64,000 bases of DNA from Candidatus Omnitrophota bacterium (GCA_028715785.1 JAQURC010000002.1:8402-72401); one strand, 5' to 3'; numbered from the stretch's first letter, positions 1,724 through 58,452 are shown. Numbers and translations are program-made. The notes: generated from the letters alone by a model not told the origin.

Positions 1724-1975
1724 ATGGCAGTACATATTCGACTAAGAAGGATTGGTAAAAATCCCGGCGGAAAGCCGCATTTCCGCGTTACCGTCTTTGA
1801 TGAGCGCAGGGGCCGGGACAGCCGGATAATCGAAGAGCTGGGTTATTATAAACCGACCAGCGGCTCGGCAGTGCTTAAGCAAGAGCGCATCGCAGCCTGG
1901 ATAAAAAATGGCGCCCAGTTGTCTGCAACCGTAAAGAGTTTATTGAAGAAGTCCAATAATACCCCGCGCTTATAA
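1724..1975 (+). CDS. rpsP: 30S ribosomal protein S16
   Basis: MAVHIRLRRIGKNPGGKPHFRVTV... typical S16 N-terminus; SD GGGAGG upstream. Confidence 0.9.
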   Translation: MAVHIRLRRIGKNPGGKPHFRVTVFDERRGRDSRIIEELGYYKPTSGSAVLKQERIAAWIKNGAQLSATVKSLLKKSNNTPRL

Positions 1976-2030
1976 GGAATTGCGCGCCTGCCTACCGGCA
2001 GGCAGGGGCAGCCCTTTTGGGCAAAGGAGC
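1961..2030 (+). repeat. gene-proximal hairpin+SD element, variant copy with extra palindrome (CCTGCCTACCGGCAGGCAGG) upstream of yajC; overlaps rpsP stop
   Basis: ACCCCGCGCTTATAAGGAATTGCGCG...GGCAGCCCTTTTGGGCAAAGGAG; rpsP ends ...NNTPRL* with TAA inside the element loop. Confidence 0.65.
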
Positions 2031-2342: not shown

Positions 2343-4544
2343 ATGGAAAGAAAGCTGACCTATAAAATATTGCTTATCTTAGGCGTAATTGGATTGTGCG
2401 CATATTATACCTTTCCCCTGAGTAAGCATATTAACCTGGGCCTGGATTTGCAGGGAGGGATGCATCTGTTGCTTAAAGTTGATACCAGTCATCTTGAGGG
2501 AAAGGCAAAATTAGATGCCTGTGACCGGGCAGTCGAGGTTATCCGTAACCGCATCGATGAGTTCGGGGTCAGGGAGACTTCCATTCAAAAGCAGGGCGAG
2601 GATGAAATTGTAGTGCAGCTTCCCGGGGTTACTGACCGGCAGCGCGCCATTGATTTAATCGGTAAAACCGCAATGCTTGAATTTAAAGTTGTCTCCAATG
2701 ATGCGGATAAGCTCAAGGAGTCAATCGCCGGCACGATCCCTGAAGGTTATGAATTAAAATATTCTCAGGAAGAGAATGAGCCGTTATTGCTTGAGAAGAA
2801 AACCGTTTTAGTCGGGGATTCTTTAACCGATGCTTCGGTGCGTTTTGATCAAAGCCAATTCAGCGAGCCGATTGTTGCTTTACAGTTTAACGCCGCAGGC
2901 TCCAAGAAATTTGCCGAAATAACCGCGGCAAATGTAGGAAAGCGCCTGGCGATTGTCCTGGATGGAAAGGTGCAGTCAGCGCCCAGGATCAGGGAGGCGA
3001 TCCCTTCAGGGGAGGCGGTAATTACCGGCAGGTTTGATGTTCAAACTGCCCAGGACCTGGCCTTAGTTTTAAGGGTAGGGGCCTTACCTGCGCCAATGCA
3101 TATTGAGGAGGAAAGGACAATCGGCCCGTTATTGGGGCAGGATTCGATAAGTAAAGGAGTTAAGGCCTGCATTATCGGCATCGGCTTAGTTTTTATTTTT
3201 ATGGCTGTTTATTACCTTTTAGCCGGGATCGTTGCCAATATCGCCCTTATGCTTAACCTGCTTATAATCTTAGGATCGTTGGGCATGCTTCCTTTAATAT
3301 TTCCCGGCATATCCGCCACTTTGACTCTTCCGGGGATTGCCGGTATCGCTCTTTCTTTAGGTATGGCAGTAGATGCCAACGTCTTGATTAATGAGCGCAT
3401 AAGAGAAGAGTTGGCCGCGGGCAGAAGTTTACGCCTGGCAATAACCAACGGATATGGGAGGGCTTTTAGCGCCATATTCGATTCAAACCTTACTACCTTA
3501 ATTGCCGCGTTCCTTTTGTTCCAATTTGGCACCGGGCCCATAAGGGGTTTTGCGGTTACCTTAACCATCGGTTTGATTGCCAGCATGTTTACCGCTATTA
3601 TCGTAACCAGGGTAATCTTTGAACTCCTTTTAAATTCGGGAATCCTGAAATCATTGCCGATGTTAAAGTTGATCAAGGATACAAAAATAGATTTTATTAG
3701 CAAAAGAAAGATTTTTTATGCGCTTTCTATTGTAGTTACGGTAGTAGGGTTGGTTTCGTTCTTAATGAAAGGGAGCAAGGCTTACGGTATAGATTTTTCC
3801 GGAGGGCAGCTCCAGGAGTATATGTTTAAGGCCCCGCCTTCTGTTGATAAGGTTAGAAAGGTTTTAGACCAGATAAATCTCAGTAACGCTTCCATACAGC
3901 AGTTCAAAGACAACCCGAATGTTTTACTGATCAGGACCTCTGAAGATAAGAATGAGATATTGACTAAGGAACTAAAACAAAGTTTTCCCCAGGATGATAT
4001 TCAAGTTTTAAGGATCGAGCGCGTTGGCCCTGTAGCGGGAAAACACTTAAGGGATAAGGCGGTGCTGGCGCTTTTCTGGGCGTTGGCAGGGATCCTTATT
4101 TACGTTGCTTTCAGGTTCAAGCATTTTAACTTTGCGATCGCCGGGATTATCGCTCTTCTTCATGATGTTTTAGTTTCTTTGGGCATGCTTTCCCTGACCG
4201 GCAGGCAAATAGACCTTTTAAGCGTCACTGCTTTTTTAACTATTGCCGGCTATTCAATAAATGATACGATTGTTATTTATGACCGGGTGCGGGAAAATGC
4301 CAAGTTTTACCGCAAATTGAATCTTTATGAATTGATAAACCTAAGCGTGAATCAATGTTTGGGGAGGACGCTGCTTACCAGCGGAGTTACCTTGTTGTGC
4401 GTTTTGGCAATATTTTTATACGGTGGGGAGATCCTCGGTAATTTTTCTTTTGCTTTGTTAGTTGGTTTTTTCTGCGGAGCTTATTCTACGGTTTATATCG
4501 CTTCACCGCTGGTGCTTGCTTGGAGCCGCAAAAGCTCTAAATAA
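2343..4544 (+). CDS. secDF: protein translocase subunit SecDF (fused SecD-SecF)
   Basis: 733 aa; SecD periplasmic domain plus two six-TM halves; yajC-secDF synteny. Confidence 0.9.
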   Translation: MERKLTYKILLILGVIGLCAYYTFPLSKHINLGLDLQGGMHLLLKVDTSHLEGKAKLDACDRAVEVIRNRIDEFGVRETSIQKQGEDEIVVQLPGVTDRQRAIDLIGKTAMLEFKVVSNDADKLKESIAGTIPEGYELKYSQEENEPLLLEKKTVLVGDSLTDASVRFDQSQFSEPIVALQFNAAGSKKFAEITAANVGKRLAIVLDGKVQSAPRIREAIPSGEAVITGRFDVQTAQDLALVLRVGALPAPMHIEEERTIGPLLGQDSISKGVKACIIGIGLVFIFMAVYYLLAGIVANIALMLNLLIILGSLGMLPLIFPGISATLTLPGIAGIALSLGMAVDANVLINERIREELAAGRSLRLAITNGYGRAFSAIFDSNLTTLIAAFLLFQFGTGPIRGFAVTLTIGLIASMFTAIIVTRVIFELLLNSGILKSLPMLKLIKDTKIDFISKRKIFYALSIVVTVVGLVSFLMKGSKAYGIDFSGGQLQEYMFKAPPSVDKVRKVLDQINLSNASIQQFKDNPNVLLIRTSEDKNEILTKELKQSFPQDDIQVLRIERVGPVAGKHLRDKAVLALFWALAGILIYVAFRFKHFNFAIAGIIALLHDVLVSLGMLSLTGRQIDLLSVTAFLTIAGYSINDTIVIYDRVRENAKFYRKLNLYELINLSVNQCLGRTLLTSGVTLLCVLAIFLYGGEILGNFSFALLVGFFCGAYSTVYIASPLVLAWSRKSSK

Positions 4545-4611: not shown

Positions 4612-6507
4612 ATGTTATTTAAATCACTCAAACTATATCCTAATCAAGATATTAACTTAGAAACTCTTTCTGAGGCCCTGGTTGATTTTGGTTACCGCAG
4701 GCAGAAGATGGTTTCCGCAGAAGGCGATTTTAGCCGCCGCGGTTCGATTATCGATATTTTCCCGGCCTCCTTTGAATTACCCATCCGTATTGAATTAGGT
4801 AATGAAAAAATCATTTCCATCAAAACTTTTAATCCTTCCAGCGGCCAGGCCCTTTGGCAGCATAATATCGTTATTGTCCTGCCGCATAAAAAGTCCTCAG
4901 GCGCCAGAGGCCGCGTATTTAACGAAAAGTTCCCTTTAAAAAATTTCGTAGATTTGAATATCGGTGATTTTGTAGTGCATAACCAGCATGGCATAGGAAG
5001 GTTCCTGGGCATGCAGAAGATCAAGGCAGGAAGCGGCCTTAAGGACCACCTGGTGATTGAGTATGACCGCAATGAAAAACTGTATGTGCCGGTTGACGCC
5101 ATGCACCTGGTGCAGAAGTATATTGCTTTTCACGCGGGGCGGCCTAAACTCTACCGTTTAGGCAATAAGCAGTGGCAGAGGGTAAAGGCGAAGGCGCGCA
5201 AGGGCGTTCAAAAGCTGGCCTGGGAACTATTGAGTCTGCAGGCAATGCGCCTGGCTTCTAAGGGGTTTAAGTTTTCCGCGGATACCGATTGGCAGGCTGA
5301 TTTTGAAAAGACATTTCCGTATGAAGAAACCCCCGATCAGGCCAAGGCAATGGCAGAGGTTAAGCTCGATATGGAATCTTTTAAGCCCATGGACAGGCTG
5401 CTTTGCGGGGATGTGGGGTATGGAAAGACCGAAGTAGCGATGCGGGCGGCATTTAAATCGGTGATGGACAATAAACAGGTTGCTTATCTTGTCCCGACCA
5501 CTATTTTAGCCGAGCAGCATTATAAGAATTTCACCGGCCGGTTGGCTAATTTTGCGGTAAATGTTGCGATGCTTTCCCGTTTTAAAACCATCAGGCAGCA
5601 AAAAGAAATTATCGAAGGGTTAGCCGACGGAAGCGTGGATATAGTTATCGGCACGCACCGGCTGCTTTCGGATGACGTGGTTTTTAAGGATTTAGGTTTG
5701 GTTATCGTTGATGAAGAGCAGCGGTTTGGAGTTGAGGCTAAAGAAAAGCTGAAAAAACTTAAAACTACCATCGATGTCCTGGTTTTAACTGCCACACCGA
5801 TCCCGCGCACCTTGTATATGAGTTTAATGGGGGCAAAAGAAATTTCGGTAATCAATACCCCGCCGCAAAATAGGTTGCCTATCAAGACGGTTGTGGTAGA
5901 ATATGATGCGGATTTGGTAACCCAGGCCATTAAGCGGGAACTGGCGCGCCGCGGCCAGGTGTTTTTTCTGCATAACCGTATCCTGGATTTGGAAAAAATC
6001 CGGGATAAGATCGCAAAGAATTTGCCGGCAGGCGCGAGGATTGCCATGGCCCATGGCCAAATGAATTCTTCTTTGCTTGAGCGGATCATGTCGGATTTTA
6101 TTTCCGGCAATATCGATGTTTTGGTCTCAACCATGATTATTGAATCCGGCATCGATATACCAAATGCCAATACCATTATCGTAAATAACGCGCAGATGTT
6201 TGGATTATCTGATCTGCATCAATTACGCGGCAGGGTGGGCAGGTTTAACCGGTCCGCCTACGCGTATTTTATGGTTCCTGGCAATATGGTTTTGGAAGCC
6301 GATGCCAAAAAACGGCTGCAGGCGATAGAGGAATACACCGAGCTGGGGGCCGGTTTTAATATTGCCATGCAGGATCTGGAGATCCGCGGGGCCGGCAACA
6401 TCCTGGGACAAGAGCAGCACGGATTTATCGTGGCTGTGGGGTTTGACCTTTATTGCAGATTATTAAAAGAAGCGGTGGTCAATTTTAAGAAAGCAGGGGT
6501 ATTTTAA
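4612..6507 (+). CDS. mfd: transcription-repair coupling factor Mfd, short form (RNAP-interacting domain plus RecG-like translocase; lacks the UvrB-homology N-terminal module)
   Basis: 631 aa; [14 protein letters not shown] (Mfd RID motif), DEAD/DEAH helicase motifs ([35 protein letters not shown]). Confidence 0.8.
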
Positions 6508-7418
6508 TGAAGCGCATAATTAGTTTTTCGGCCATTGCAATTACGCTTATTTTTTTTATCCCCTTTCTTTACGCGCAGGATAAGGTGGTGGCGATAGTGA
6601 ACAATGAAATTATCACGCAAAAAGACCTCAATGATTTTTTGAATTATATACGCCTGCAGTATTCACGCGAAGTTAAAGGAAAGGCTTTGGCGGAAAAAGT
6701 AGAAGCGATGCGGCAGGATCTATTACAGCGTTTAATCGAAGACCGGATTATACTTGCGCAGGCAAAGATCGATAAGATAAATATCGATTCCAACAGGGTA
6801 AAAGAAAAAATTAATGAGATTAAAAAGCGTTACCGGTCGGATTCGGAAATGGAACGTGATTTGGCTAAACAGGGATTAGTGCAGGCGGATTTGGAAAATA
6901 AGATCCGGGAGCAGATGCTCACCTATAGCATTATCGAGCAGAAGGTGCGCAGTAAAGTAGTGGTTTGGCCGGAAGAAATCACCAGCTTTTATAACCAAAA
7001 TAAGCAGCAGTTTTTAAAACCTGAGGAGAGGATCCTCACGATTATTATCTTGCCCAGTGAAGATTTGGCTAAAACCGTCAGTTATCAGTTGAGGATTGGG
7101 TCAAAATTAGAGGAGCTTGCCGCAAAATACCAGTTTACCACCGATAAGCTTATTGCCTGGCAGGGGCAGCAGCTGCGCAGCGAGATCGAAGAAACGGTAT
7201 TTAAATTGGGAATAGGGGAAGTATCTAATCCGGTAAAAATCGACGAGCAATATTATATCTTCAAGTTAGATGATATTGCCGGAAGCCGGCAATTGAGTTT
7301 GGATGAGGCGCAGGCTAATATCCAGGCTTATTTATTCGATAAGAAACTGCAGGATGCCCTGGCCAAATGGTTAAATGAACTTAAAAAACAATCCTACATT
7401 AAAATCCTCGACAATTAG
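6507..7418 (+). CDS. surA: SurA-like periplasmic chaperone / PpiC-type peptidyl-prolyl isomerase
   Basis: Signal peptide, SurA N-domain, degenerate parvulin domain; conserved surA-pdxA-ksgA synteny. Confidence 0.7.
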   Translation: MKRIISFSAIAITLIFFIPFLYAQDKVVAIVNNEIITQKDLNDFLNYIRLQYSREVKGKALAEKVEAMRQDLLQRLIEDRIILAQAKIDKINIDSNRVKEKINEIKKRYRSDSEMERDLAKQGLVQADLENKIREQMLTYSIIEQKVRSKVVVWPEEITSFYNQNKQQFLKPEERILTIIILPSEDLAKTVSYQLRIGSKLEELAAKYQFTTDKLIAWQGQQLRSEIEETVFKLGIGEVSNPVKIDEQYYIFKLDDIAGSRQLSLDEAQANIQAYLFDKKLQDALAKWLNELKKQSYIKILDN

Positions 7419-8367: not shown

Positions 8368-9158
8368 GCCAGAATTTTCTTACCGATAAAAATATTCAGA
8401 AAAAAATAATCCGCGCCTGCGGCCTGACCAATGAGGATATCGTTTTAGAGATAGGCGCCGGATACGGGGGTTTTAGCGCCCAGCTTGCGCCTTGCCTAAA
8501 GAAGCTCTATGCCCTTGAGATCGATTGGCGCCTGTATCCGGATCTTGAAAAAAATTTAAGCGCCTACAACAATTGTAAAATTATAAAAAGCGATATATTA
8601 AAATTTGAAATAACCGGATTTCTGCAGGAAGAAAAAATAAAACAAAAAATAAAAGTTATCGGCAATATCCCCTATTATATATCCAGTCCGATTATCGAAC
8701 ATCTGATCAATTATCGTAATAATATCGGTGAGGTTTTTATGACGGTGCAAAAAGAGTTCGGCCGCAGGGTTTGCGCTGTCCCCGGGTCAAAAGAATACGG
8801 ATCTTTCAGCTGTTTTGCGCAATATTACGCCCGGTGCAGGGTCCTTTTTGAAATCAACAAAAGATGCTTTAATCCCGTCCCAAAAGTAGATTCGTCTTTT
8901 TTATCGCTGAAGTTCAGGGAAAAGCCGGCTGTTAACGTAGGGGATGAGACGCTGTTCTTTAAGTTGATCCGCGCTGCTTTTAACCAGAGAAGGAAAACTT
9001 TACGCAACAGCCTGGAAGGCTTGCTGGACCGGCAGGAGTTAGAAAGGGTCCTGGATAGCGCCGGTATTAATAGGAATGTGCGCCCGGAGGATCTTTCCCT
9101 GGAGCAGTTGGCAAATTTGAGCAATTCCTTAAAATCATTACAGTTAAGCGTTCATTAA
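8340..9158 (+). CDS. rsmA: 16S rRNA (adenine1518/1519-N6)-dimethyltransferase RsmA/KsgA
   Basis: LGQNFLTD, VLEIGAGYG, GNIPYYISSPI motifs. Confidence 0.9.
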   Translation: MRIKPKKSLGQNFLTDKNIQKKIIRACGLTNEDIVLEIGAGYGGFSAQLAPCLKKLYALEIDWRLYPDLEKNLSAYNNCKIIKSDILKFEITGFLQEEKIKQKIKVIGNIPYYISSPIIEHLINYRNNIGEVFMTVQKEFGRRVCAVPGSKEYGSFSCFAQYYARCRVLFEINKRCFNPVPKVDSSFLSLKFREKPAVNVGDETLFFKLIRAAFNQRRKTLRNSLEGLLDRQELERVLDSAGINRNVRPEDLSLEQLANLSNSLKSLQLSVH

Positions 9159-9175
9159 AAAAGTCAAAAAATATC

Positions 9176-9233
9176 TTGACAAGCCCGCGTTTTTATTATA
9201 AACTTCTTTACTTTCACGATTATCTGGTAAAAT
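9176..9233 (+). promoter_or_regulatory. candidate sigma70-type promoter region for the tRNA-Thr/rpmG/tRNA-Trp/secE/nusG unit (TTGACA at 9176-9181; TATAAA and TAAAAT -10 candidates)
   Basis: Hexamer matches only; spacings suboptimal. Confidence 0.25.
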
Positions 9234-9342
9234 AGCACGTTTAATTTAATTTTATTATTACCAAAGAAAGAGTTTTGGATAATTTCTTGGGGTGTAGATT
9301 TTTTTTATTTATTGGCTTGCACGACTTGGCGAATCCATTTCT

Positions 9343-9415
9343 GCTGGAGTAGCTCAGTTGGCAGAGCACGTCCTTGGTAAGGACGGGGTCACGAGTTCAA
9401 TTCTCGTCTCCAGCT
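9343..9415 (+). tRNA. tRNA-Thr (anticodon GGT)
   Basis: Cloverleaf: acceptor GCTGGAG/CTCCAGC, D-arm AGCTCAGTTGG, anticodon loop TTGGTAA, T-arm GGTTCAATTCC. Confidence 0.85.
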
Positions 9416-9427
9416 TACTAAAAAAAT

Positions 9428-9577
9428 ATGCGTGAAACAATAACTTTAGAATGTACGGTTTGTAAAAATAGAAATTACACGACGTCAAAGAACAAAAAGT
9501 TGCATCAAGATAGGCTGGAGCTTAATAAGTTCTGCAACTGTTGTCATAAGCATACCCCGCATAAAGAGATTAAATAA
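9428..9577 (+). CDS. rpmG: 50S ribosomal protein L33 (zinc-ribbon C+ form)
   Basis: 49-aa [52 protein letters not shown] (below ORF-track cutoff); between tRNA-Thr and tRNA-Trp upstream of secE. Confidence 0.85.
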
Positions 9578-9581
9578 TATT

Positions 9582-9652
9582 AGGGGCGTCGGTTAATGGC
9601 AAACCAACGGTCTCCAAAACCGTGACTGCAGGTTCAAGTCCTGCCGCTCCTG
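9582..9652 (+). tRNA. tRNA-Trp (anticodon CCA)
   Basis: AGGGGCG acceptor, anticodon loop CTCCAAA, T-arm GGTTCAAGTCC; canonical position upstream of secE. Confidence 0.85.
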
Positions 9653-9810
9653 CAAAATTAGGACTTGAACCTAAAGGGGTGTGGGGGAAAATTCCCCCAC
9701 GTTTTCGGGGTAACAGCGAACGAAGTGAGCGCCATAGGGGCAGAGCCCCTTTGGGGAGCGATACGCCGAAGGCGTAGAGCGACAGGTTCTAGTCCTGCCG
9801 CTCCTGTAGT
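9653..9810 (+). ncRNA. structured secE-leader region: inverted copy of tRNA-Trp T-arm (9660-9672), two GC hairpins (GGGGGAAAATTCCCCC; GGGGCAGAGCCCC) and a direct repeat of the tRNA-Trp 3' end (CAGGTTCTAGTCCTGCCGCTCCTG, 9783-9806); tRNA-like remnant
   Basis: Read directly; 23/24 identity to tRNA-Trp 3' end. Confidence 0.45.
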
Positions 9811-9839
9811 CTATGGTTGAAAGGGAAGCGTAAAAATTT

Positions 9840-10031
9840 ATGAATATTTTAGCAAAACCGGTAAATTTTTTAAAGGAAGTCAGGAGCGAATTAAGCAAGG
9901 TTGCCTGGTCTACCAAAAGAGAGCTGCTTGCTTCTACGGTTTTGGTAATTACGGTTACGGTGATTATGACGGCTTTTATCGGGATAGTTGATCTGGGTTT
10001 ATCCAGGTTCCTAAGCGTGGTCTTTAAATGA
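9840..10031 (+). CDS. secE: preprotein translocase subunit SecE
   Basis: 63 aa, single C-terminal TM helix; immediately upstream of nusG with 4-nt overlap. Confidence 0.85.
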   Translation: MNILAKPVNFLKEVRSELSKVAWSTKRELLASTVLVITVTVIMTAFIGIVDLGLSRFLSVVFK

Positions 10032-10555
10032 AGAACTGGTACGTTGTGCATACGCAAACCGGGATTGAAGAAAAAGTAAAAGCATCTTTAGAGAAGAAGG
10101 TGGCCTCCGAAGGTTTGCAAGAGTTAATTTCTAGCGTTGTTATTCCTACCGAGCAGGTCTCGGAGGTGCGCGCGGGAAAGAAGAAGATTACGCAGAGAAA
10201 GTTTTTCCCGGGATATTTATTAGTGGAAATGGATCTAAGCGAACAGACCTACCTTTTTGTTAAGAATTCTCCCGGAGTAACGGGGTTTATCGGATTGGGC
10301 AGGAAACCCGTGCCGCTGCCTCAAGAAGAGGTGGACAATATCCTTAAGCGCACCAAGGAAACCGCGGCCAAGCCGTCCCCTAAAATAGTTTTTGAGAAAG
10401 GCGAACAGGTCAGGGTTAACGAAGGCCCGTTCCTGAATTTTAACGGCACAATCGAAGAAGTTTATCCTGAAAAAGGAAAGGTGAAAGTGAGCGTTTCTAT
10501 TTTTGGCCGCTCTACGCCGGTGGAGTTGGAATACTGGCAGGTGGAGAAAGTTTAA
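10028..10555 (+). CDS. nusG: transcription termination/antitermination factor NusG
   Basis: NGN domain (WYVVHTQTG), KOW domain; secE-nusG-rplK synteny. Confidence 0.9.
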
Positions 10556-10557
10556 CT

Positions 10558-10983
10558 ATGGCAAAGGCAATCAAGGCGCAGATTAAATTACACGTTCCGG
10601 CAGCGCAGGCAAACCCGGCGCCTCCGGTAGGCCCGGCATTAGGCCAGCATGGCGTGAATATTATGCAGTTCTGCAAGCAGTTTAATGACCAGACCAAAGG
10701 CAGGGACGGATTGATTCTTCCGGTAGTAATCAGTGTTTTTGAGGACAGGACCTTTACCTTTATTATTAAGAGCCCTCCATCATCTATTCTGCTAAAAAGG
10801 GCGGCGAATTTAGCCAAGGCGTCAGGGACAAGCGGAAAAGAGACCATCGGCAAAGTAACCAGGAAGCAGGTTGAAGAAATTGCCAAACTAAAGTTAGCGG
10901 ATTTAAATACCAATGACATGCAGCAGGCAATCAAGAGCATAGAAGGCACTGCCCGCAGTATGGGTATTGCCATTGAAGGATAA
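10558..10983 (+). CDS. rplK: 50S ribosomal protein L11
   Basis: [22 protein letters not shown] motif. Confidence 0.95.
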
Positions 10984-10986
10984 AGC

Positions 10987-11667
10987 ATGAAAACGCAGAG
11001 CAAAAGATATAAAGAATCGGTTAAACAGGTAGAGAAAGATAAATTTTATCAGTTAAAAGAAGCGGTGGCCATATTGAAAAAACTGCCTAAGCCAAAATTT
11101 GACGGCTCCGTCGACCTGCATTTTAATCTGGGCGTGGATACCAAAAAGAGCGATCAGATGATCCGCGGGACGGTTGTGCTTCCGCATGGGACCGGAAAAA
11201 AGGTGCGCGTGGCAGTATTCTGTAAAGGCGAGCATGAGCGCCAGGCCAGGGAGGCAAAGGCGGATTATGTCGGCGGCACGGAGTTGATGGATAAAGTTGC
11301 CGCGGGGTTTCTTGATTTTGACTGCGCCATCGCCACTCCTGAAATGATGAAAGATTTAAGCAAGCTTGGCAAAGTCCTGGGCCCGCGGGGCCTGATGCCC
11401 AGCCCTAAGACCGGCACGGTGACCAATGATATTTCAAAAGCCATCGAAGACGTGAGGAAGGGCAAGGTTGAGTTTCGCGTGGATAAGCAGGGCGGGATGC
11501 ATTTATCGATAGGCAAGATTTCTTTTGACGAAAACCAGATAAATGATAATGCTTCCAAAGTGATCGAGGCAGTTAACGAGTCAAGGCCGGCTTCGGTAAA
11601 AGGTAAATTTGTGAAAAGTCTGAGCATAACCGTTTCCATGAACCCGGGATTAAAGATTATCTGCTAA
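10987..11667 (+). CDS. rplA: 50S ribosomal protein L1
   Basis: L1 family, 226 aa, rplK-rplA synteny. Confidence 0.95.
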   Translation: MKTQSKRYKESVKQVEKDKFYQLKEAVAILKKLPKPKFDGSVDLHFNLGVDTKKSDQMIRGTVVLPHGTGKKVRVAVFCKGEHERQAREAKADYVGGTELMDKVAAGFLDFDCAIATPEMMKDLSKLGKVLGPRGLMPSPKTGTVTNDISKAIEDVRKGKVEFRVDKQGGMHLSIGKISFDENQINDNASKVIEAVNESRPASVKGKFVKSLSITVSMNPGLKIIC

Positions 11668-11668
11668 A

Positions 11669-12196
11669 ATGAAAAAAATCGGCCAATTAATCAAAGAAAC
11701 TTCAGAGAACCGCATAAAGAATACTTTCAAGTCATCCAAAGGATTGATTATTATAAAATACTCCGGAGTATCCAGTCCCGACATGAGTACTCTAAGAAAG
11801 GGCCTGAGGGCTTCCGGATCCGACCTTTTTGTAGTTAAAAACAGCATTGCCAAAAGAGCAATGAAAGAGTTGGGTCTGGTGGATTTAGCCAAATCAATAG
11901 AGACCCCCTGCGGAATGATTTTTTTCAAGGATGAACCGGTAGACACCTCCAGGATTTTGTGCGCTTTTCGAAAAGAGCATGAAAAACTGGTATTGGAAGG
12001 CGGATTATTGCAGGATAAATTGTTGAGTTTAAAAGATATTGAAGTCATGAGCACCCTGCCTTCAAAAGAGGTTATGAGGGCCAGGGTAGTGGTGACTTTG
12101 AATGCTCCAATTGCAAAATTGGCAATTGTCTTAAATCAGACATTAAAGAAGTTTGTTTATTGCTTGGATCAAATCAAACAGAAAAAGACAAGTTAA
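11669..12196 (+). CDS. rplJ: 50S ribosomal protein L10
   Basis: 175 aa L10 family; precedes rplL. Confidence 0.9.
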   Translation: MKKIGQLIKETSENRIKNTFKSSKGLIIIKYSGVSSPDMSTLRKGLRASGSDLFVVKNSIAKRAMKELGLVDLAKSIETPCGMIFFKDEPVDTSRILCAFRKEHEKLVLEGGLLQDKLLSLKDIEVMSTLPSKEVMRARVVVTLNAPIAKLAIVLNQTLKKFVYCLDQIKQKKTS

Positions 12197-12202
12197 AAAG
12201 TA

Positions 12203-12229
12203 CCCCGCGCTTAGCGGAATTGCGCGGGG
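12203..12229 (+). repeat. gene-proximal hairpin element, partial copy (hairpin 1 only: CCCGCGC-TTAGCGGAATT-GCGCGGG)
   Basis: Sequence family alignment; tandem with the next copy. Confidence 0.6.
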
Positions 12230-12244
12230 TTACACTATGGGCAA

Positions 12245-12294
12245 CACCCCGCGTTTATAAGGAATTACGCGGGTGTGTCCTACTGACAAGGAGG
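12245..12294 (+). repeat. gene-proximal two-hairpin+SD element (copy upstream of rplL; hairpin 2 variant GTGTCC-TAC-TGACA)
   Basis: CACCCCGCGTTTATAAGGAATTACGCGGGTGTGTCCTACTGACAAGGAGG then ATG. Confidence 0.7.
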
Positions 12295-12299
12295 AAGAA

Positions 12300-12683
12300 A
12301 TGGCAACTGCAAAAATGGAAGATTTAATCAAGTCAATTGAGACGATGAGCGTTCTTGAACTGGCCGACTTAGTTAAAGCTTTGGAGGAAAAATTTGGCGT
12401 AAGCGCAAACATGCCGATGGCCGCAGCGCCTGCTGCCGGTGCCGCAGGCGCAGCCCCCGCTGCCGAAGAGAAGAGCGCTTTTACCGTAGTGTTGACTAAT
12501 GCCGGGGCGAATAAAATCGCGGTAATCAAAGAAGTGCGCACGATTACCAGTCTCGGTTTGAAAGAAGCCAAAGATTTAGTCGATGCCGCTCCTAAGCCGA
12601 TCAAGGAAGGCGTAAATAAAGAAGAAGCTGCGGAAATGAAGAAGAAATTAGAAGCAGCCGGGGCTACCGTAGAATTAAAGTAA
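12300..12683 (+). CDS. rplL: 50S ribosomal protein L7/L12
   Basis: [34 protein letters not shown]..., Ala/Pro hinge; start corrected to ATG after SD (ORF-track start at 12273 runs through the repeat). Confidence 0.95.
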
Positions 12684-12719
12684 GTTTGAATAAACAGGCC
12701 AAAGGCCGGCCATAAAATA

Positions 12720-15700
12720 ATGATCAAACGAAAAAATTTTGCCAAGATAAAAGAAGTTTACGATCTGCCCGATCTTTTAGACGTTCAGCTGGATACGTAC
12801 CGTGAATTTCTGCAGATGGATGTTCCGGCGGCAGAAAAGAAAAATCAGGGATTGCAGGAAGTTTTTGGCGAGATCTTTCCTATAGAAAATGCCGACCGTT
12901 CGGTAAAGCTGGAATTCATCAGCTATTCTTTGGGAAAGCCCAAATACACGATGAGCGAGTCCAAAAACCGCTCATTGACCTATGCGGCTCCGTTAAAGGT
13001 GAAATTCCGCCTGACTACTCCCCGGGAAACCAAAGAGCAGGACGCTTATTTCGGGGAGATCCCTTTAATGACCGAGACCGGGACCTTCATTATCAACGGC
13101 GATGAGCGCGTAGTCGTCAGCCAGCTGCAGCGCTCCCCCGGAGTATCCTTTGAAGAAGAATTACATCCTACCGGAAAGAAGATCTTTTACGGCCGGATCA
13201 TCCCTTACCGCGGAGCCTGGCTGGAATTTAAATATGACCTTACCGAAACAGTCACCGCTTATGTTGACCGGCGCAGGAATTTTCCCGCAACCCAAATTTT
13301 AAGGATTTTAGGTTTTTCGCAAGACCAGCAGATATTTGCCGCTTTTGGCAAAGAGCATCCCGAAATCGTCAATACCTTAAAGAAAGATTACACTAAAAAT
13401 AAAGAAGAAGCATACCTTGATTTCTACCGTAAGATGCGGCCGACGGAGCCGGTAACTAAAGAGGCAGCCGAAGGCCTGTTTTACAGGTTATTTTTTGATC
13501 CCGCCAGATATGATCTAGAAAGAGCGGGCCGTTTTATTTTGAACCGTAAATTGGGGATGGAGGTGTCTTTAGATAAAAGGATACTTGATTCCGATACGGT
13601 AATTAAGGTGATCGAGTATTTAATCAAACTTAATGCCGGTTCGGGAAAGATCGATGATATTGACCACCTGGGAAACCGCCGCGTAAAGAGCGTCGGAGAG
13701 TTAGTTCAAAATCAGGTGCGTATCGGTTTATCCCGCGTTGAGCGTTCAATTAAGGAAAGGTTAAGTATTTTAGGGGAGTTTGATAATTTAAACGTGCATT
13801 ACCTGATCAATTCCAAACTGTTAAGCAACCAGATACGGGATTTCTTCGGGCGCAGCCAGTTGTCCCAGTTTATGGACCAGATCAATCCTTTGGCAGAAAT
13901 GACGCATAAGCGCCGTTTAAGCGCTTTAGGGCCGGGAGGGCTTTCACGCGAAAGAGCCGGGTTTGAGGTCAGGGATATCCATCCTTCACATTATGGAAGA
14001 GTTTGCCCTATCGAGACACCGGAAGGGCCAAATATCGGTTTGATTGCCTCTTTGAGCTGTTTTGCGCGGATTAATTCTTTGGGTTTGATCGAGACTCCTT
14101 ACCGTAAGGTAGAAGACGGCAGGGTGACTAAAAAATTTGAATATTTGACCGCAGACATCGAAGAGGATAAGTTTATCGCTCAAGCTGATGTCCCGTTAGA
14201 CAGCGAAGGGCGTTTTGTGGATAGGTTTGTTACCTGCCGCTATAAAGATGATTTTCCGAAAGTGCCGGCAAAAGACGTGCAGTATATGGATGTTTCCGCA
14301 AAACAGCTGGTTTCAGTTGCCGCCTCCTTAATTCCTTTCCTGGAGCATGATGATGCCAACCGCGCGTTAATGGGTTCAAACATGCAAAGGCAGGCTGTCC
14401 CGCTGATGATTACCGAGACGCCTTTGGTGGGAACAGACATGGAAGCAAAAGTTGCCCAGGATTCCGGCACCGTAGTTATCGCCGAGGATTCCGGGAAAGT
14501 AACCAGCGTAGATGCTTCAGCCATTACCGTGGGCAAGAAAATTTATCATCTGAAGAAATTTTTGCGCACTAATGCCGACACATCGATAAATCAAAGGCCG
14601 CTGGTAAAATTAGGCGACCGAATCGAAGCAGGGCAGGCAATCGCAGATGGCGTTGCTACCAAAGAAGGGGAACTGGCTTTAGGCAAGAATGTTTTAGTTG
14701 CTTTAATGCCCTGGAGAGGTTATAACTTTGAAGACGCTATTCTTATCAGCGAAAGATTGGTCAAGCAGGATTCTTTTACTTCGATTCATATCGAAGAATT
14801 TGAGATTGAAGCTGCCGAGACCCGGCTTGGCAATGAAGAGATCACCCGCGATATCCCTAACGTCAGCGAAGAGGCTTTACGGAACCTTGATGAGGACGGG
14901 ATTATCCGCGTCGGGGCAGAGGTTGGAGCCGGGGATATCCTGGTCGGCAAAATTACTCCCAAGACCGATTCTGAGCCCAGCCCGGAAGAAAGATTACTGC
15001 GCGCGATTTTCGGCGAGAAAGCCGGCGATGTGCGCGATACTTCTTTAATTGTCCCTCCCGGGGTTGAAGGGGTAGTTATCGATGTCCATGTTTTTCAGCG
15101 TAAGGACCGCGGCCGTAAAACTAAAGAAGAAAAGACCAAAGAGCTGGCTAAAATCCGCGAGCTCAAGGCTTATTATAAACAAGAGGTCGAGTTTTTACAG
15201 GTTGAGAAAACCTTGCGTTTATCTCAAGTGCTGGGCATAGATAAGAAAAAAGTAGAGAAGTTTGATTTTAGCGATAATGAAGAGGCAAAGATTTTGGCTG
15301 CCTCCTTTGACGAGCAGATGCAGGAATTGTTGGCTGAAGAGGAGCAGGAGATTGAGAAGGTGCGCCGCGGGGATGAATTGCCTACAGGTATCTTAAAGAG
15401 GGTTGTGGTTTATGTGGCTACAAAACGCAAGCTTTCCGAAGGCGATAAACTTGCCGGCCGGCACGGTAATAAAGGTGTTGTTGCCAGGATTATCGCCGAA
15501 GAAAATATGCCTTATATGCCCGATGGTACTCCGGTAGATGTGGTTTTGAACCCATTAGGCGTTCCTTCGCGTATGAACGTAGGCCAGATTTTGGAATGCC
15601 ATTTGGGTTGGGCAGCAAAAGCGTTAGGTATAAATGTCAGCTGTCCGGTATTTGACGGAGCAAAAGAGGTTGAAATCAAGGAATTGCTTAAGAAAGCCGG

Positions 15701-23139: not shown

Positions 23140-23145
23140 AAAAAC

Positions 23146-23196
23146 ACACCCCGCGCTTATAAGGAATTGCGCGGGTGTGCCCCTAGGGGCAAGGAG
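23146..23196 (+). repeat. gene-proximal two-hairpin+SD element (upstream of tuf)
   Basis: CACCCCGCGCTTATAAGGAATTGCGCGGGTGTGCCCCTAGGGGCAAGGAGG. Confidence 0.75.
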
Positions 23197-27428: not shown

Positions 27429-27761
27429 ATGATCTCAAGAGCGGAAGGAAAATTTTTAAGGATTTCACCCAGTAAGGTGCGCATCGTTGCCGATCTTATC
27501 CGCGGCAAGGATGCCCTCCAGGCGCAAAGTATCCTGCTGCATTTGAATAAAAGGTCAAAAGAGTACCTGATAAAAATATTGAAATCCGCGATCGCTAACG
27601 CTAAAGTCAAGGGTTTTGCGGCCGAGAAATTATATGTTTCCAAGATTGTTTGTAATCCCGGGCCGATGTGGAAAAGATTTAAGGCCGCTGCTTTTGGCCG
27701 GGCCGCGTCAATAGTTAAACGTACGGTGCATATAAAAATTGAATTGGATTTAAAAGCTTAG
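27429..27761 (+). CDS. rplV: 50S ribosomal protein L22
   Basis: MISRAEGKFLRISPSKVRIVADLIRGK...; start corrected from ORF-track 27294 to in-frame ATG just after the rpsS stop. Confidence 0.93.
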   Translation: MISRAEGKFLRISPSKVRIVADLIRGKDALQAQSILLHLNKRSKEYLIKILKSAIANAKVKGFAAEKLYVSKIVCNPGPMWKRFKAAAFGRAASIVKRTVHIKIELDLKA

Positions 27762-27811
27762 CACCCCGCGCTTATAATGTATTGGGCGGGTGTGCCCTTT
27801 TGGGCAAGGAG
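27762..27811 (+). repeat. gene-proximal two-hairpin+SD element (upstream of rpsC)
   Basis: CACCCCGCGCTTATAATGTATTGGGCGGGTGTGCCCTTTTGGGCAAGGAG. Confidence 0.75.
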
Positions 27812-30875: not shown

Positions 30876-30878
30876 ATT

Positions 30879-30929
30879 ACACCCCGCGCTTATAATGAAT
30901 TGCGCGGGTGTGCCCGTGTGGGCTAGGAG
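30879..30929 (+). repeat. gene-proximal two-hairpin+SD element (upstream of rpsH)
   Basis: CACCCCGCGCTTATAATGAATTGCGCGGGTGTGCCCGTGTGGGCTAGGAG. Confidence 0.75.
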
Positions 30930-30934
30930 AATAA

Positions 30935-31330
30935 ATGTCCAGGACAGATTTAATCGCAGATGTTTTTACAATCATACGTAATGCAATATTGATTAAACGG
31001 GATACCGTGGATCTTCCGGCTTCCGGTAACATCAAATCGATTATGGCTATTCTTAAAAAGAATGAATACATCGATAATTTTAAGCTGATTGAAGATAAAA
31101 AGCAGGGATTGGTAAGGGTTTATTTAAAGTATACCGCCGGAAAATCAGCTATCCGCAATATCAAGCGGGTTTCCCGGCCGGGTTTGAGGGTTTATGCTCG
31201 AGGCAAAAAGGTCCCCACAGTTTTGCGCGGCAGGGGCCTGGCAATCGTTTCTACTTCTAAGGGCGTAATCACCGATAAAGAAGCCAGGGAGTTGGGTGTG
31301 GGTGGCGAAGTTATTGGTTATATTTGGTAA
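30935..31330 (+). CDS. rpsH: 30S ribosomal protein S8
   Basis: MSRTDLIADVFTIIRNA... S8 family. Confidence 0.95.
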   Translation: MSRTDLIADVFTIIRNAILIKRDTVDLPASGNIKSIMAILKKNEYIDNFKLIEDKKQGLVRVYLKYTAGKSAIRNIKRVSRPGLRVYARGKKVPTVLRGRGLAIVSTSKGVITDKEARELGVGGEVIGYIW

Positions 31331-31332
31331 AT

Positions 31333-31381
31333 ACCCCGCGTTTATAAGGTATTGCGCGGGTCTGCCCTTGCGGGCAAAGGA
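31333..31381 (+). repeat. gene-proximal two-hairpin+SD element (upstream of rplF; stem G-U variant, weak SD AAGGAAA)
   Basis: ACCCCGCGTTTATAAGGTATTGCGCGGGTCTGCCCTTGCGGGCAAAGGAAA. Confidence 0.7.
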
Positions 31382-36377: not shown

Positions 36378-36390
36378 AATTATTTTTTAA

Positions 36391-36440
36391 CACCCCGCGC
36401 TTAAAAGGAATCGCGCGGGTCTGCCCGCCTGGGCAAGGAG
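36391..36440 (+). repeat. gene-proximal two-hairpin+SD element (upstream of rpsM)
   Basis: CACCCCGCGCTTAAAAGGAATCGCGCGGGTCTGCCCGCCTGGGCAAGGAG. Confidence 0.75.
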
Positions 36441-36859: not shown

Positions 36860-36861
36860 TA

Positions 36862-36910
36862 CACCCCGCGCTAATTTGAATTGCGCGGGTGTGTGTTCGT
36901 ACACAAGGAG
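36862..36910 (+). repeat. gene-proximal two-hairpin+SD element (upstream of rpsK; hairpin 2 fully covaried TGTGT-TCGT-ACACA)
   Basis: CACCCCGCGCTAATTTGAATTGCGCGGGTGTGTGTTCGTACACAAGGAG. Confidence 0.75.
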
Positions 36911-40750: not shown

Positions 40751-42003
40751 GCCAAGCGACTATAGCCGAAAAAATATTAAGCAAGCATGCCGGTAAAACC
40801 TTGCGCGCAGGAGATTTTGCGGTCTGCAAAATTGATTTTGCTTTTGGCCAGGATGGAACCTCCTCGATAATTATCGACCGGATAAAAGAGCTGGGGGTAA
40901 AAAAAATAAAAACCAAGTTTTGCATGGTAATTGACCATAGCGCCCCCAGCCCCAGCGAAGGGGTTTCCCGGGTGCATAAGAAGATGCGCGATTTTTCGCA
41001 GGATTTTAATACGGAAATTTTCGATATCGGCTGCGGGGTTTGCCATCAGGTTATCCCTGAATCGGGAAATGTTTTACCCGGAGATTTAGTTTTAGGGGCA
41101 GATTCCCATACCTGTACCTATGGGGCACTGGGGGCATTCTCTACGGGTGTGGGTTCTACGGATCTGGCGATAGCTTTAGCTACGGGAAAGAATTGGTTTA
41201 AAGTCCCGGCAACCGTGAAAATTATCGTTACGGGAAAACTTCCCAAAGGGGTTTTTGCCAAGGATATAATTTTGCATATAATCGGTAAATTAAAAAGTGA
41301 CGGGGCTACCTATAAAGCAGTTGAATTCTACGGCCCGGCGATTAATAATATGGGTATGGACGGCCGGTTCACTGTTGCCAATATGCTGGTTGAGATGGGG
41401 GCAAAGACAGGCTTTCTGCCGGTTGATGATAAAACCGCTGCCTGGTTAAAATCCAGGGTTAGCGGCAGCCGGCGCATTGAACATATTACCGCAGACAAAG
41501 GGGCTCTTTATGAGAATGTTTATGAGTTTGATATTTCAAAACTTGAACCGGTGGTTTCTATGCCCCATAGCGTAGATAATACCGCGCAGGCATCGACTTT
41601 AAAAAAGGTAAAAATAAACGAAGCTTTTTTGGGCACCTGTACTAACGGCCGGATCGATGATTTGAAGGTTGCGGCAAAGATCTTGAATAAACGCAAGGTT
41701 TCTCCGCAAGTTAAATTAATTATTGCTCCGAGTTCCCGCAGCGTCTATCTGGAGGCTTTAAAACTCGGCCTGGTTGAGATATTTATCAAAGCCGGGGCAG
41801 TGATTGTGGCTCCGGGCTGCGGCCCTTGCGTGGGCACGCATAACGGTATTCCCAGCGACGCAGAAGTGGTGATCTCAACCGCAAATCGTAATTTTAAAGG
41901 CAGGATGGGAAATCCTTCGGCTTTTATTTATCTGGCTTCTCCGGCTACGGTGGCGGTTTCGGCGCTTAAAGGTTACATTAGTGATCCCAGGGATTATTTC
42001 TAA
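40732..42003 (+). CDS. leuC: aconitase-family hydro-lyase large subunit, small type (3-isopropylmalate / homoaconitate dehydratase LeuC-like)
   Basis: 423 aa; Fe-S ligand context GTCTNGR, CGPCVG; paired LeuD-like gene downstream. Confidence 0.75.
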   Translation: MDNKTMSQATIAEKILSKHAGKTLRAGDFAVCKIDFAFGQDGTSSIIIDRIKELGVKKIKTKFCMVIDHSAPSPSEGVSRVHKKMRDFSQDFNTEIFDIGCGVCHQVIPESGNVLPGDLVLGADSHTCTYGALGAFSTGVGSTDLAIALATGKNWFKVPATVKIIVTGKLPKGVFAKDIILHIIGKLKSDGATYKAVEFYGPAINNMGMDGRFTVANMLVEMGAKTGFLPVDDKTAAWLKSRVSGSRRIEHITADKGALYENVYEFDISKLEPVVSMPHSVDNTAQASTLKKVKINEAFLGTCTNGRIDDLKVAAKILNKRKVSPQVKLIIAPSSRSVYLEALKLGLVEIFIKAGAVIVAPGCGPCVGTHNGIPSDAEVVISTANRNFKGRMGNPSAFIYLASPATVAVSALKGYISDPRDYF

Positions 42004-42004
42004 C

Positions 42005-42053
42005 CACCCCGCGCTTATAAGGAATTGCGCGGGTGTGCCCGTGTGGGCAAGGA
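42005..42053 (+). repeat. gene-proximal two-hairpin+SD element (upstream of pilT)
   Basis: CACCCCGCGCTTATAAGGAATTGCGCGGGTGTGCCCGTGTGGGCAAGGAGG. Confidence 0.75.
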
Positions 42054-47002: not shown

Positions 47003-47007
47003 ACCAT

Positions 47008-47056
47008 CACCCCGCGCTTAGAGGAGTTGCGCGGGTGTGCCCTGGTGGGCAAGGAG
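47008..47056 (+). repeat. gene-proximal two-hairpin+SD element (upstream of lipoyl-domain gene)
   Basis: CACCCCGCGCTTAGAGGAGTTGCGCGGGTGTGCCCTGGTGGGCAAGGAGG. Confidence 0.75.
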
Positions 47057-51854: not shown

Positions 51855-51867
51855 AATTAGACAATTT

Positions 51868-52100
51868 GGTAAACTTATAGGTTAAGGGAAATCCGTAAAT
51901 ACGGATGCGGTCCCGCCGCTGTAAGGGCAGACGAAAACTGCATAAGTCACTGTCTTTAGTGTTAAAGACGGGAAGACGCAGTAAGTAGGTTAGAAGCCCA
52001 AGCCAGAAGACCTGCCTATATAAAGAATGGTAATGCCTCGTGGAATGGGTTAAGAAATATTTGGGTGCAACCCGTCAGCAACTGTGGCGGGTTTTTTGTT
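51868..52100 (+). promoter_or_regulatory. cobalamin (B12) riboswitch with intrinsic-terminator expression platform
   Basis: AAGGGAA, CCCGCCGCTGTAAG, GTCACTG (B12 box), GGGAAG, GACCTGCC conserved blocks; terminator ACCCGTCA-GCAACTG-TGGCGGGT + TTTTTTGTTT at 52069-52100. Confidence 0.6.
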
Positions 52101-58305: not shown

Positions 58306-58321
58306 TTTATAGAGAAGAACA

Positions 58322-58452
58322 AACCAGATAGGCGGAGGAAATCCTGGTGTAATCCCAGGTACTGTCGCGCAACGGTAATCCCGCAAGGGTAGTCCGGTCG
58401 ACCACCTATCGCAAGGCCTGCCTGCCGGCAGGCAGGTAAGTACTCTCGCAGA
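58322..58452 (+). promoter_or_regulatory. cobalamin (B12) riboswitch upstream of btuB
   Basis: GGAAATCCTGGTGTAATCCCAGGTACTGTCGCGC (GGTG-AATCC / ACTGT core), GCAAGGCCTGCC; 10-bp palindrome CCTGCCTGCC/GGCAGGCAGG. Confidence 0.6.

Follow-up and report, generated by a model that had tools for sequence, protein, structure and literature searches.

Two copies of an Omnitrophota palindromic repeat, probably mobile, in the rplJ-rplL spacer

Introduction

Between rplJ and rplL, the genes for ribosomal proteins L10 and L7/L12, a 64,000-nt stretch of DNA from a Candidatus Omnitrophota bacterium (GCA_028715785.1, JAQURC010000002.1:8402-72401; hereafter the window, at its full length) contains a 103-nt spacer (12197-12299) that is the sole sizeable gap within rplKAJL. 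The hairpins that fill this spacer belong to a repeat that also stands before many other genes, and among the described systems closest to it are repetitive extragenic palindromes (REPs). REPs are short, GC-rich extragenic palindromes that occur in many copies, show compensatory evolution of their stems, lie between co-directional genes in clusters or mosaics, are probably transcribed, and carry an unpaired GTAG or CGTC tag at one end (PMC3733652). The repeat resembles them in having a short, GC-rich, imperfect palindrome (its first hairpin, at 26-32 nt within the 20-40 bp of REPs) and in being extragenic and high in copy number (11 in 64 kb). It differs in that neither tag is found on either strand, the consensus flanks being AACAC... 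and ...GTGTG, and in that its unit consists of two unlike hairpins rather than a single palindrome or an inverted pair of REPs. Furthermore, whereas REPs lie mostly downstream of coding regions and often as inverted pairs, the repeat stands 5' of the next Shine-Dalgarno (SD) sequence, is co-oriented with that gene, and is arranged head-to-tail where there is more than one copy. REPs and the related bacterial interspersed mosaic elements (BIMEs) are thought to be mobilized by RAYT transposases; a crude HUH...Y motif search, which covered 1.48 Mb of loci, revealed no RAYT gene.

Bacterial MITEs (miniature transposable elements with inverted repeats), the BOX elements of pneumococcus and the Correia elements of Neisseria are small, non-coding and insertion-polymorphic, occur nested or in tandem and near gene starts, and can potentially alter expression. 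The repeat shares with MITEs its presence/absence polymorphism at orthologous sites and the occurrence of identical copies at different sites, but its inverted repeats are internal, forming two separate hairpins with none that spans the unit, target-site duplication is not evident, and at about 45 nt it is far shorter than typical MITEs. Its architecture is also compatible with that of the miniature elements derived from IS200/IS605 (palindrome-associated transposable elements), which have subterminal hairpins at both ends but neither inverted termini nor duplications, insert in one orientation next to a fixed target of 4-5 nt, and show a strand bias; its two unlike hairpins, its lack of inverted termini and its constant orientation beside a purine-rich flank recall these elements. 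Unlike those elements, which in their known examples are longer, it has a loosely conserved flank past hairpin 2 (mostly AA followed by GGAG, otherwise AAAA, TTG or GCTGGAG), and the same crude search found no TnpA in the analyzed loci.

The location of the hairpins invites comparison with a second kind of system. The RNA that is bound by L10(L12)4 precedes rplJ and is patchily distributed among phyla; its hallmarks are a kink-turn with a bulged C after it and a hairpin whose internal loop consists of two unpaired adenosines (PMC3616713). An earlier note on this DNA had proposed that the hairpins between rplJ and rplL appear to replace autoregulatory leaders of this kind. We find that a small dispersed palindromic repeat, and not a member of the L10_leader family, is the best-supported identity of the element.

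Two copies of the repeat fill the rplJ-rplL spacer

We consider it likely that the spacer is made up of two copies of a dispersed palindromic repeat that is specific to one clade within Omnitrophota and is mobile or duplicative, REP/MITE-like and non-autonomous. The repeat unit of about 45 nt comprises a GC-rich hairpin 1 with a conserved, AT-rich loop of 12 nt (TTATAAGGAATT), followed by a short hairpin 2 that abuts the SD. The family consensus is CACCCCGCGC-TTATAAGGAATT-GCGCGGGTG-T-GCCC-NNNN-GGGC-A or, in a second form, (A)ACACCCCGCGC-TTATAAGGAATT-GCGCGGGTGT-GCCC-NNNN-GGGC-A, after which come the AGGAG of the gene and, 5-10 nt later, its start codon.

From the rplJ stop codon (12194-12196) the spacer reads, 5' to 3', TAA-aaagta-CCCCGCGC-ttagcggaatt-GCGCGGGG-ttacactatGGGCAA-CAC-CCCGCGT-ttataaggaatt and then ACGCGGG-TG-TGTC-ctact-GACA-AGGAGG-aagaa-ATG. 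In the copy distal to rplL, hairpin 1 (12203-12229) is intact, with 8 bp between CCCCGCGC (12203-12210) and GCGCGGGG (12222-12229) and an 11-nt loop, TTAGCGGAATT. What follows, TTACACTATGGGCAA (12230-12244), retains just the 3' arm of hairpin 2, GGGCAA (12239-12244). The proximal copy is complete. Its hairpin 1 (12248-12273) pairs CCCGCGT (12248-12254) with ACGCGGG (12267-12273) around the loop TTATAAGGAATT, giving 7 bp plus a CAC/GTG extension, and where the family consensus has C-G it shows U-A, a compensatory change; its hairpin 2, TGTC-CTACT-GACA (12276-12288), also carries a C-G to U-A change relative to the consensus GCCC/GGGC. The earlier note had described tandem copies that fill the spacer, a first one with hairpin 1 only and a full second one with a covaried hairpin 2 and an SD that feeds rplL, and the sequence bears this description out.

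The unit is not confined to this spacer. A search of the window with a pattern for hairpin 1 gave 9 matches, against 0.12 expected by chance, and none of 100 shuffles reached 9. A covariance model built from seven copies and then run over the window identified 11 copies (table 1), all of which are intergenic and have a hairpin 1 of 26-32 nt. The spacers that bear the element contain little besides it, and the element begins a few bases past the upstream stop codon. No family in Rfam 15 matches the repeat, and full-text searching of the literature, the literal loop sequence included, found no description of it; the family therefore seems to be previously undescribed.

Table 1. Copies of the repeat in the window, with the genes and the SD that border the rplJ-rplL spacer
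Feature	Position	Strand	Evidence and remarks
rplJ (ribosomal protein L10)	11669..12196	+	NCBIfam L10, E = 2e-40; without leader; begins 1 nt past rplA stop
Distal, decayed repeat copy	12199..12244	+	Covariance-model match 12199-12241, 20.7 bits, E = 0.0045; sequence; fold
Proximal, complete repeat copy	12245..12288	+	Covariance-model match 12243-12293, 67.3 bits, E = 7e-17; alignments
rplL SD, AGGAGG	12289..12294	+	Belongs to the host gene, outside the repeat; GGAGGAAGAAATGGCAAC also in relatives without the element
rplL (ribosomal protein L7/L12)	12300..12683	+	NCBIfam TIGR00855, E = 1e-45; ATG at 12300
Copy before yajC	1958..2026	+	Covariance model; 3' arm of hairpin 1 interrupted at 1990-2003 by GCCTACCGGCAGGC, another small palindrome
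Copy between fusA and tuf	23145..23190	+	78.2 bits; EF-Tu identified
Copy before rpsC	27760..27805	+	74.9 bits; gene identified
Copy before rpsH	30878..30923	+	75.9 bits; gene identified
Copy before rplF	31330..31375	+	70.2 bits; gene identified
Copy before rpsM	36389..36434	+	75.3 bits; gene identified
Copy before the gene after rpsM, presumed rpsK	36860..36904	+	49.6 bits; hairpin 2 of GTGT/ACAC type
Copy before pilT	42003..42048	+	80.9 bits; gene identified
Copy before a small ORF (open reading frame) resembling a lipoyl-domain protein	47006..47050	+	61.3 bits; gene context

Insertion polymorphism at rplL and other sites

A protein search with L10 provided 50 related loci (48-84% L10 identity; L001-L050), labeled as Candidatus Omnitrophota, as Omnitrophica, or as unclassified metagenome-assembled genomes (MAGs) from the same clade. 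Their rplJ-rplL spacer is highly polymorphic. In about 20 of the 50 it is hairpin-free and measures about 15 nt or less, with the form TAA-AAGGAGG-N6-ATG (e.g., TAAAAGGAGGAAGAAATG), whereas about ten carry one copy of the element; in L029 and L043 one copy is nested within the loop of another. On a neighbor-joining tree of L10 plus L12 the presence of the element is patchy, and sister pairs differ (L043/L045, L016/L003, L005/L011, L013/L014, and the window versus L001/L009). Filled and empty spacers share one and the same SD at the same distance from the ATG (GGAGGAAGAAATGGCAAC), which indicates that the SD belongs to the host and that the element lies just 5' of it.

Hairpin modules unrelated to the repeat occupy the same spacer in other relatives, namely in L010 and L013, in L006, L012 and L035, and in L007, L015, L021, L023 and L033; examples are CCCCCTCGCGGGGCTCGGGG...GGGGAAAAATGAGGAGG, GGCC-rich hairpins, and AAATCCTTGC...GCAAGG. 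Small structured insertions in general seem to collect in the rplJ-rplL spacer. As for the two copies in the window, the distal loop TTAGCGGAATT is also the loop of the single rplL copy in L016, a variant that is found at other sites too, and the proximal hairpin 2 resembles hairpin 2 of relatives. These copies appear to have a mosaic history. The notion that the copy proximal to an SD is always the younger one was not upheld, as covariance-model scores in other tandem arrays go both ways.

The polymorphism extends to other genes. Of 17 yajC sites, only that of the window is filled, and the 16 empty ones have an equivalent segment from SD to ATG, in which AGGAG is followed by about 6 nt, commonly CTTAAT. 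The sites before rplF, rpsM, rpsK and pilT are empty in the relative L161. Because the rpsM copy of L140 lies at the stop codon, 8 nt from the SD, it represents an independent insertion in the same spacer. The rpsL-rpsG spacer holds a reverse copy in L024 and L113, a forward copy in L028 and L013, and no copy in 31 loci including the window.

Distribution among genes

A strand-blind scan of metagenome contigs with a pattern for hairpin 1 only returned at least 120 stretches. Among the matches listed, the covariance model finds 100 copies in the first 80 of these loci and 65 in the other 40. An ORF starts directly after 73 of the 100 copies listed for the first 80, mostly 4-10 nt past AAGGAG, and outside one locus that is exceptionally rich in copies (L166) 35 of the 46 further listed copies stand directly 5' of an ORF. 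Most copies with no adjacent ORF are upstream units in a tandem or nested group, and the group as a whole leads to such an ORF. Orientation was scored by a direct start-codon test, as automated gene calling extended ORFs into the element and was unreliable. By our estimate, which counts the distal members of arrays, roughly 85-90% of copies point the same way as the gene downstream. Relative to their flanking genes, about 10% of the listed copies are in reverse; at least 11 loci share one such copy, between tRNA-Thr and rpmG, which the window lacks. A few copies adjoin terminator-like hairpins, and the element was not found in viral contigs.

The downstream genes in relatives are very diverse. 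They include tuf, rpsC, rpsH, rplF, rplT, rpmE, eno, dnaK, groES, hup and acpP, as well as metK, purD, ilvE, aroC, smc, pilT, and genes for ferritin, glutaredoxin, P-II, PilZ-like proteins and lipoproteins. The exact placement between stop codon and SD, the mostly shared orientation with the gene, the nesting in its own loop and the capacity for arrays of seven units in essential ribosomal operons are unusual properties among small repeats of bacteria.

Evidence for spread

Several lines of evidence point to a repeat that moves or duplicates. First, identical copies of 52 nt, the free loop of hairpin 2 included, stand before three different genes. Second, where copies are nested, the inner one always interrupts the loop of hairpin 1 at one fixed position, between TTATAAGG and AATT, and L128 contains a triple nest. 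Third, tandem arrays are common among the matches listed. The locus L166 has at least 20 copies in 12.8 kb of its ribosomal-protein cluster (among other positions at 2027-2245, 5908-6055 and 6459-6553), including a head-to-tail array of seven units before rplP (3116-3485); each unit of this array ends in its own AAGGA(A/G), and the SD-like sequence has thus been duplicated along with the element. Fourth, the window contains 11 copies in 64 kb, against 23 in 710 kb of the same gene region in the 50 relatives, a difference in density that argues for a lineage-specific expansion. Finally, decay products are recognizable. They include the distal rplL copy of the window and, in L090, L086 and L064, a 5' arm and loop fused to an SD, as would be expected from a deletion between the AAGGA of the loop and the AAGGA of the SD.

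The truncated copies in L090, L086 and L064 precede an XRE-like gene and have the sequence CACCCCGCGCGTATAAGGAG. A diverged subfamily (GGCCCGACCCAATTGGAATGGGTCGG with CCGCCNNNNGGCGG) was seen solely as an insert in the hairpin-1 loop of the main family (L099 145-327, L128 547-657); in L099 it takes the loop position given above for nested copies.

The data establish the repeat family, its structure and covariation, its insertion polymorphism, and the statistics of its placement and orientation; from these patterns we infer that the repeat is mobile, that it spreads by insertion or duplication, and that any effect on expression is a generic one. It is gained and lost at orthologous sites of close relatives, and the slot in which it strongly prefers to land or be retained is the handful of bases that separate a stop codon from the next SD, with the orientation of the gene that follows; this preference explains its frequency in tightly packed ribosomal-protein operons. 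The spacer of this genome has received or retained two copies, one of which is decaying. These copies would be co-transcribed in the nusG-rplKAJL-rpoBC message, in which stable hairpins are predicted to lie just upstream of an unpaired rplL SD. Their effect, if any, might be to separate initiation at rplL from termination at rplJ, or to buffer or protect mRNA ends, and it must be dispensable since many relatives manage with about 15 nt.

A number of observations weigh against the proposal of a mobile repeat. Terminal inverted repeats are lacking, since the left end (CACCCCGCGC) has no complementarity to GGGCA at the right end. Comparisons of filled and empty sites (L045/L043, yajC and pilT) show no consistent target-site duplication, although A/AA at both junctions is possible. 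Our search for a transposase or other mobilizing gene, a weak one that consisted of a crude HUH/Y1 motif regular expression on the ORFs of the 1.48 Mb of loci, found none. Some orthologous copies, for example at rplL and at the tRNA-Thr site, persist across diverged genomes with compensatory changes, which suggests that copies are not simply neutral junk, and the conserved loop sequence implies sequence-specific recognition by a partner. Furthermore, the co-orientation of roughly 85-90% and the exact abutment on AGGAG could reflect selection for a function in mRNA rather than targeted insertion.

If the repeat moves by targeting DNA next to the SD, or if it affects translation or mRNA stability, it would bear on the tuning of expression within operons of compact, uncultivated genomes. 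It could also serve as a lineage marker, and it may be a source of assembly and annotation artefacts in Omnitrophota MAGs.

Covariation and the possible roles of the hairpins

Covariation was assessed in 91 distinct copies against 500 shuffles, with an alignment that was fitted to the model and therefore inflates the figures somewhat. Standard pairs make up 97.7% of cells versus 87.2% in the shuffles, changes on both sides are seen in 11 of the 13 pairs, none of the 500 shuffles reaches the observed values, and the signal collapses when the pairing partners are slid. Both hairpins are nonetheless maintained. Hairpin 2 keeps its stem while its loop varies, and the best-conserved loop parts are the 5' TTA and the 3' (G/T)(A/T)ATT.

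The maintained stems and the position before start codons raise the possibility of a cis-acting RNA module that is used by many genes and that enhances translation, serves as a standby site or insulator, stabilizes a 5' or 3' end, or is bound by a global RNA-binding regulator. At rplL, the copies would then raise or tune the output of L7/L12 relative to L10. Consistent with this, some three quarters of copies stand immediately 5' of an SD and in the direction of the gene, and their hairpin 2 stops exactly at AGGAG. Loop conservation and stem covariation also fit, and many targets are genes whose products are as a rule abundant (tuf, rplL, eno, dnaK, hup, groES, acpP and those for ribosomal proteins). 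More product is needed from rplL and tuf than from their upstream neighbors. We nevertheless regard an RNA module as unlikely, if well worth keeping in mind. In about 20 of the 50 relatives rplL is expressed from a hairpin-free spacer of about 15 nt. Mismatches of the G.U type and of the A.C type are equally rare (10 versus 12), unlike in typical RNA helices under selection, and reversed copies retain the loop sequence of the DNA, such that their RNA would show its complement; given these two facts, the sense RNA is not demonstrably the selected species as opposed to the DNA or either strand. The folding energy of the spacer is -41.9 kcal/mol (z = -2.98), but its complementary strand folds about equally well.

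One specific form of this idea, a CsrA-type site or SD mimic, was rejected. The consensus loop of hairpin 1 contains GGA, and a second GGA lies in the SD about 27 nt downstream, an arrangement similar to a dual CsrA site; such a spacing is compatible with a CsrA dimer. However, a GGA or SD-like core is present in just 68 of 126 loops (18 of 37 in the subset that was not selected by the scan pattern), and the target set is very broad, which argues against both a CsrA-type site and a mimic of the SD. An insulating role likewise finds no support, as the predicted accessibility from SD to AUG is essentially unchanged by the element (0.63 with it and 0.57 without, for nine window sites).

A related proposal is that the repeat is a portable expression module, read by a lineage-specific protein or by the ribosome and recruited before hundreds of highly expressed Omnitrophota genes (e.g., rplL, tuf, rpsG, rpsM, groES and dnaK), or else a mobile element with the 5' edge of the SD and its own hairpin loop as specific targets. 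We rate this as improbable. If the portable module were real, one global post-transcriptional control of the translation apparatus would have replaced protein-specific leaders in compact, leaderless genomes.

Alternatively, the element may act as DNA, in the form of a hairpin, cruciform or protein site with a role in supercoiling, nucleoid organization or replication, or as self-propagating single-stranded hairpins that are nicked in the loop by an HUH-type enzyme. Roles in supercoiling, nucleoid organization or replication have been proposed for REP/BIME elements, and a GC-rich stem with an AT-rich loop resembles the origin hairpins of rolling-circle/HUH systems. The conservation of the loop whatever its orientation relative to transcription, the lack of an excess of G.U pairs, and the nested insertions at one fixed loop position, which are consistent with a site of nicking or insertion in the loop, all fit this possibility. 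On the other hand, the crude motif search of the 1.48 Mb of loci found neither an HUH nor another enzyme, and the co-orientation with genes and the abutment on the SD remain unexplained unless insertion is strand- or target-specific. In addition, essentially all long ORFs of the window (1-64000; about 70) are on the + strand, so that the orientations of replication and of transcription are inseparable here. Overall, a role at the level of DNA appears to us quite unlikely.

The loop of hairpin 1 also contains TATAAG, which matches five of the six positions of TATAAT about 40 nt before the start codon and might therefore act as the -10 box of an outward promoter, so that transcription would start internally before genes such as rplL and tuf. 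In some bacteria, rplL or tuf is preceded by an internal promoter. This explanation is very improbable, given that a consensus scan of 12197-12299 finds no promoter-like site on the + strand, that the element contains no conserved -35, that many loops have no TATAA (e.g., TTAGCGGAATT and TAATTGGAATT), and that covariation of a stem enclosing the putative -10 would not be expected. The same scan finds no terminator-like site on the + strand, and both a promoter and a terminator were accordingly rejected for this spacer. Neither hairpin has the U tract that follows the GC-rich stem of an intrinsic terminator or attenuator, for the sequence past hairpin 1 is GTGTG and that past hairpin 2 is AAGGAG.

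Leader loss in the clade is independent of the repeat

The genes at 9.3-20 kb are all on the + strand, in the order tRNA-Thr, rpmG, tRNA-Trp, secE, nusG, rplK, rplA, rplJ, rplL, rpoB, rpoC. According to the ORF list, the junctions measure 2 nt between nusG and rplK, 3 nt between rplK and rplA, and 1 nt between rplA and rplJ. The earlier note was thus right that neither an L10 leader before rplJ nor an L11/L1 leader before rplK would find space, and the Rfam check that it called for matched no ribosomal-protein leader. Such leaders are absent at gathering thresholds from the whole window and at E<=10 from 9150-12800, and seven 20-kb relatives gave only tRNA matches in Rfam. For an L1-binding leader in particular, there was no leader-type match at E<=10 with such L1 models as Rfam 15 may hold. 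The gaps of 2 nt and 3 nt differ from the arrangement of that leader, a structured mimic of 23S rRNA before rplK/rplA.

Both in the window and in L001-L050, rplJ has no recognizable SD, and in most relatives it starts 0-3 nt past the rplA stop codon (window 11667-11671). A start that abuts the rplA stop and has no SD implies that translation of L10 is coupled to that of L1. Unlike rplJ, rplL always has a strong AAGGAGG in this set.

The tandem hairpins might in principle be a relocated, lineage-specific L10(L12)n site, or likewise an L1/L11 site, that has taken over from the canonical leaders. The spacer is structured, a canonical leader is absent with no room for one, and hairpin 1 has a single bulged C, which is only superficially like the bulged C of L10-binding RNA. 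The evidence against this idea is such that we give it almost no credence. The same element stands before dozens of unrelated genes and is therefore generic; it is absent from the spacer in about 20 of the 50 relatives, many of them close and equally leaderless, and is therefore not conserved there. The only likeness to the L10(L12)4 leader (Rfam L10_leader, RF00557) or to the L1 leader is that of a structured RNA in the rplKAJL cluster. Unlike RF00557, which lies in the 5' leader before rplJ, the repeat lies after rplJ, from where it could not control rplJ initiation. Its hairpin 1 is a continuous GC stem of 7-10 bp with one bulged C and a loop of 12 nt, neither hairpin has a kink-turn or an internal loop of two adenosines, and RF00557 gives no match even at E<=10.

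The tight rplA-rplJ junction is found in all relatives, with the element or without it, and none could accommodate an L10 leader. It follows that the element was gained independently of the loss of the leader, and the absence of the L10 leader is a clade-wide trait that is independent of the element. Since the L10(L12)4-binding RNA is patchy across phyla, its absence here is not remarkable in itself. Thus, the comparative data conflict with the view that the element replaces autoregulatory leaders, and a new L10 autoregulatory device in the rplJ-rplL hairpins is not supported. In this respect the outcome of our analysis is mainly corrective, in that the missing L10/L1 leaders are a feature of the clade unrelated to the repeat.

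Other features of the window

The region directly after tRNA-Trp (9582-9653), at 9654-9810, begins with about 130 nt of hairpin-rich sequence, after which comes a second copy of the last 24 nt of the tRNA (9783-9806; 96% identity). No related locus matches the inserted segment, but the tRNA-Trp of relatives does match the duplicated 3' end, and L006 also has a second copy. This insert looks like the footprint of an element that integrated into the 3' end of the tRNA.

A second family of small palindromes, GCCTRCCGGYAGGC, is represented in the window at 1990-2003 and 58420-58433 (2 copies versus 0.02 expected). The first of these is an insert that interrupts hairpin 1 of the yajC element in its 3' arm. 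The palindrome is also found in relatives, in L006 (before yajC), in L009 (before rpsG) and in L029, where it adjoins SD sequences. A full cobalamin riboswitch (88 bits) is present at 51862-52033, and a match to the adenosylcobalamin (AdoCbl) riboswitch below threshold (37 bits against a gathering score of 50, E = 1.5e-5) covers 58313-58441, upstream of an ORF of 628 aa at 58469. The GCCTRCCGGYAGGC-family palindrome that lies inside this match may explain its low score.

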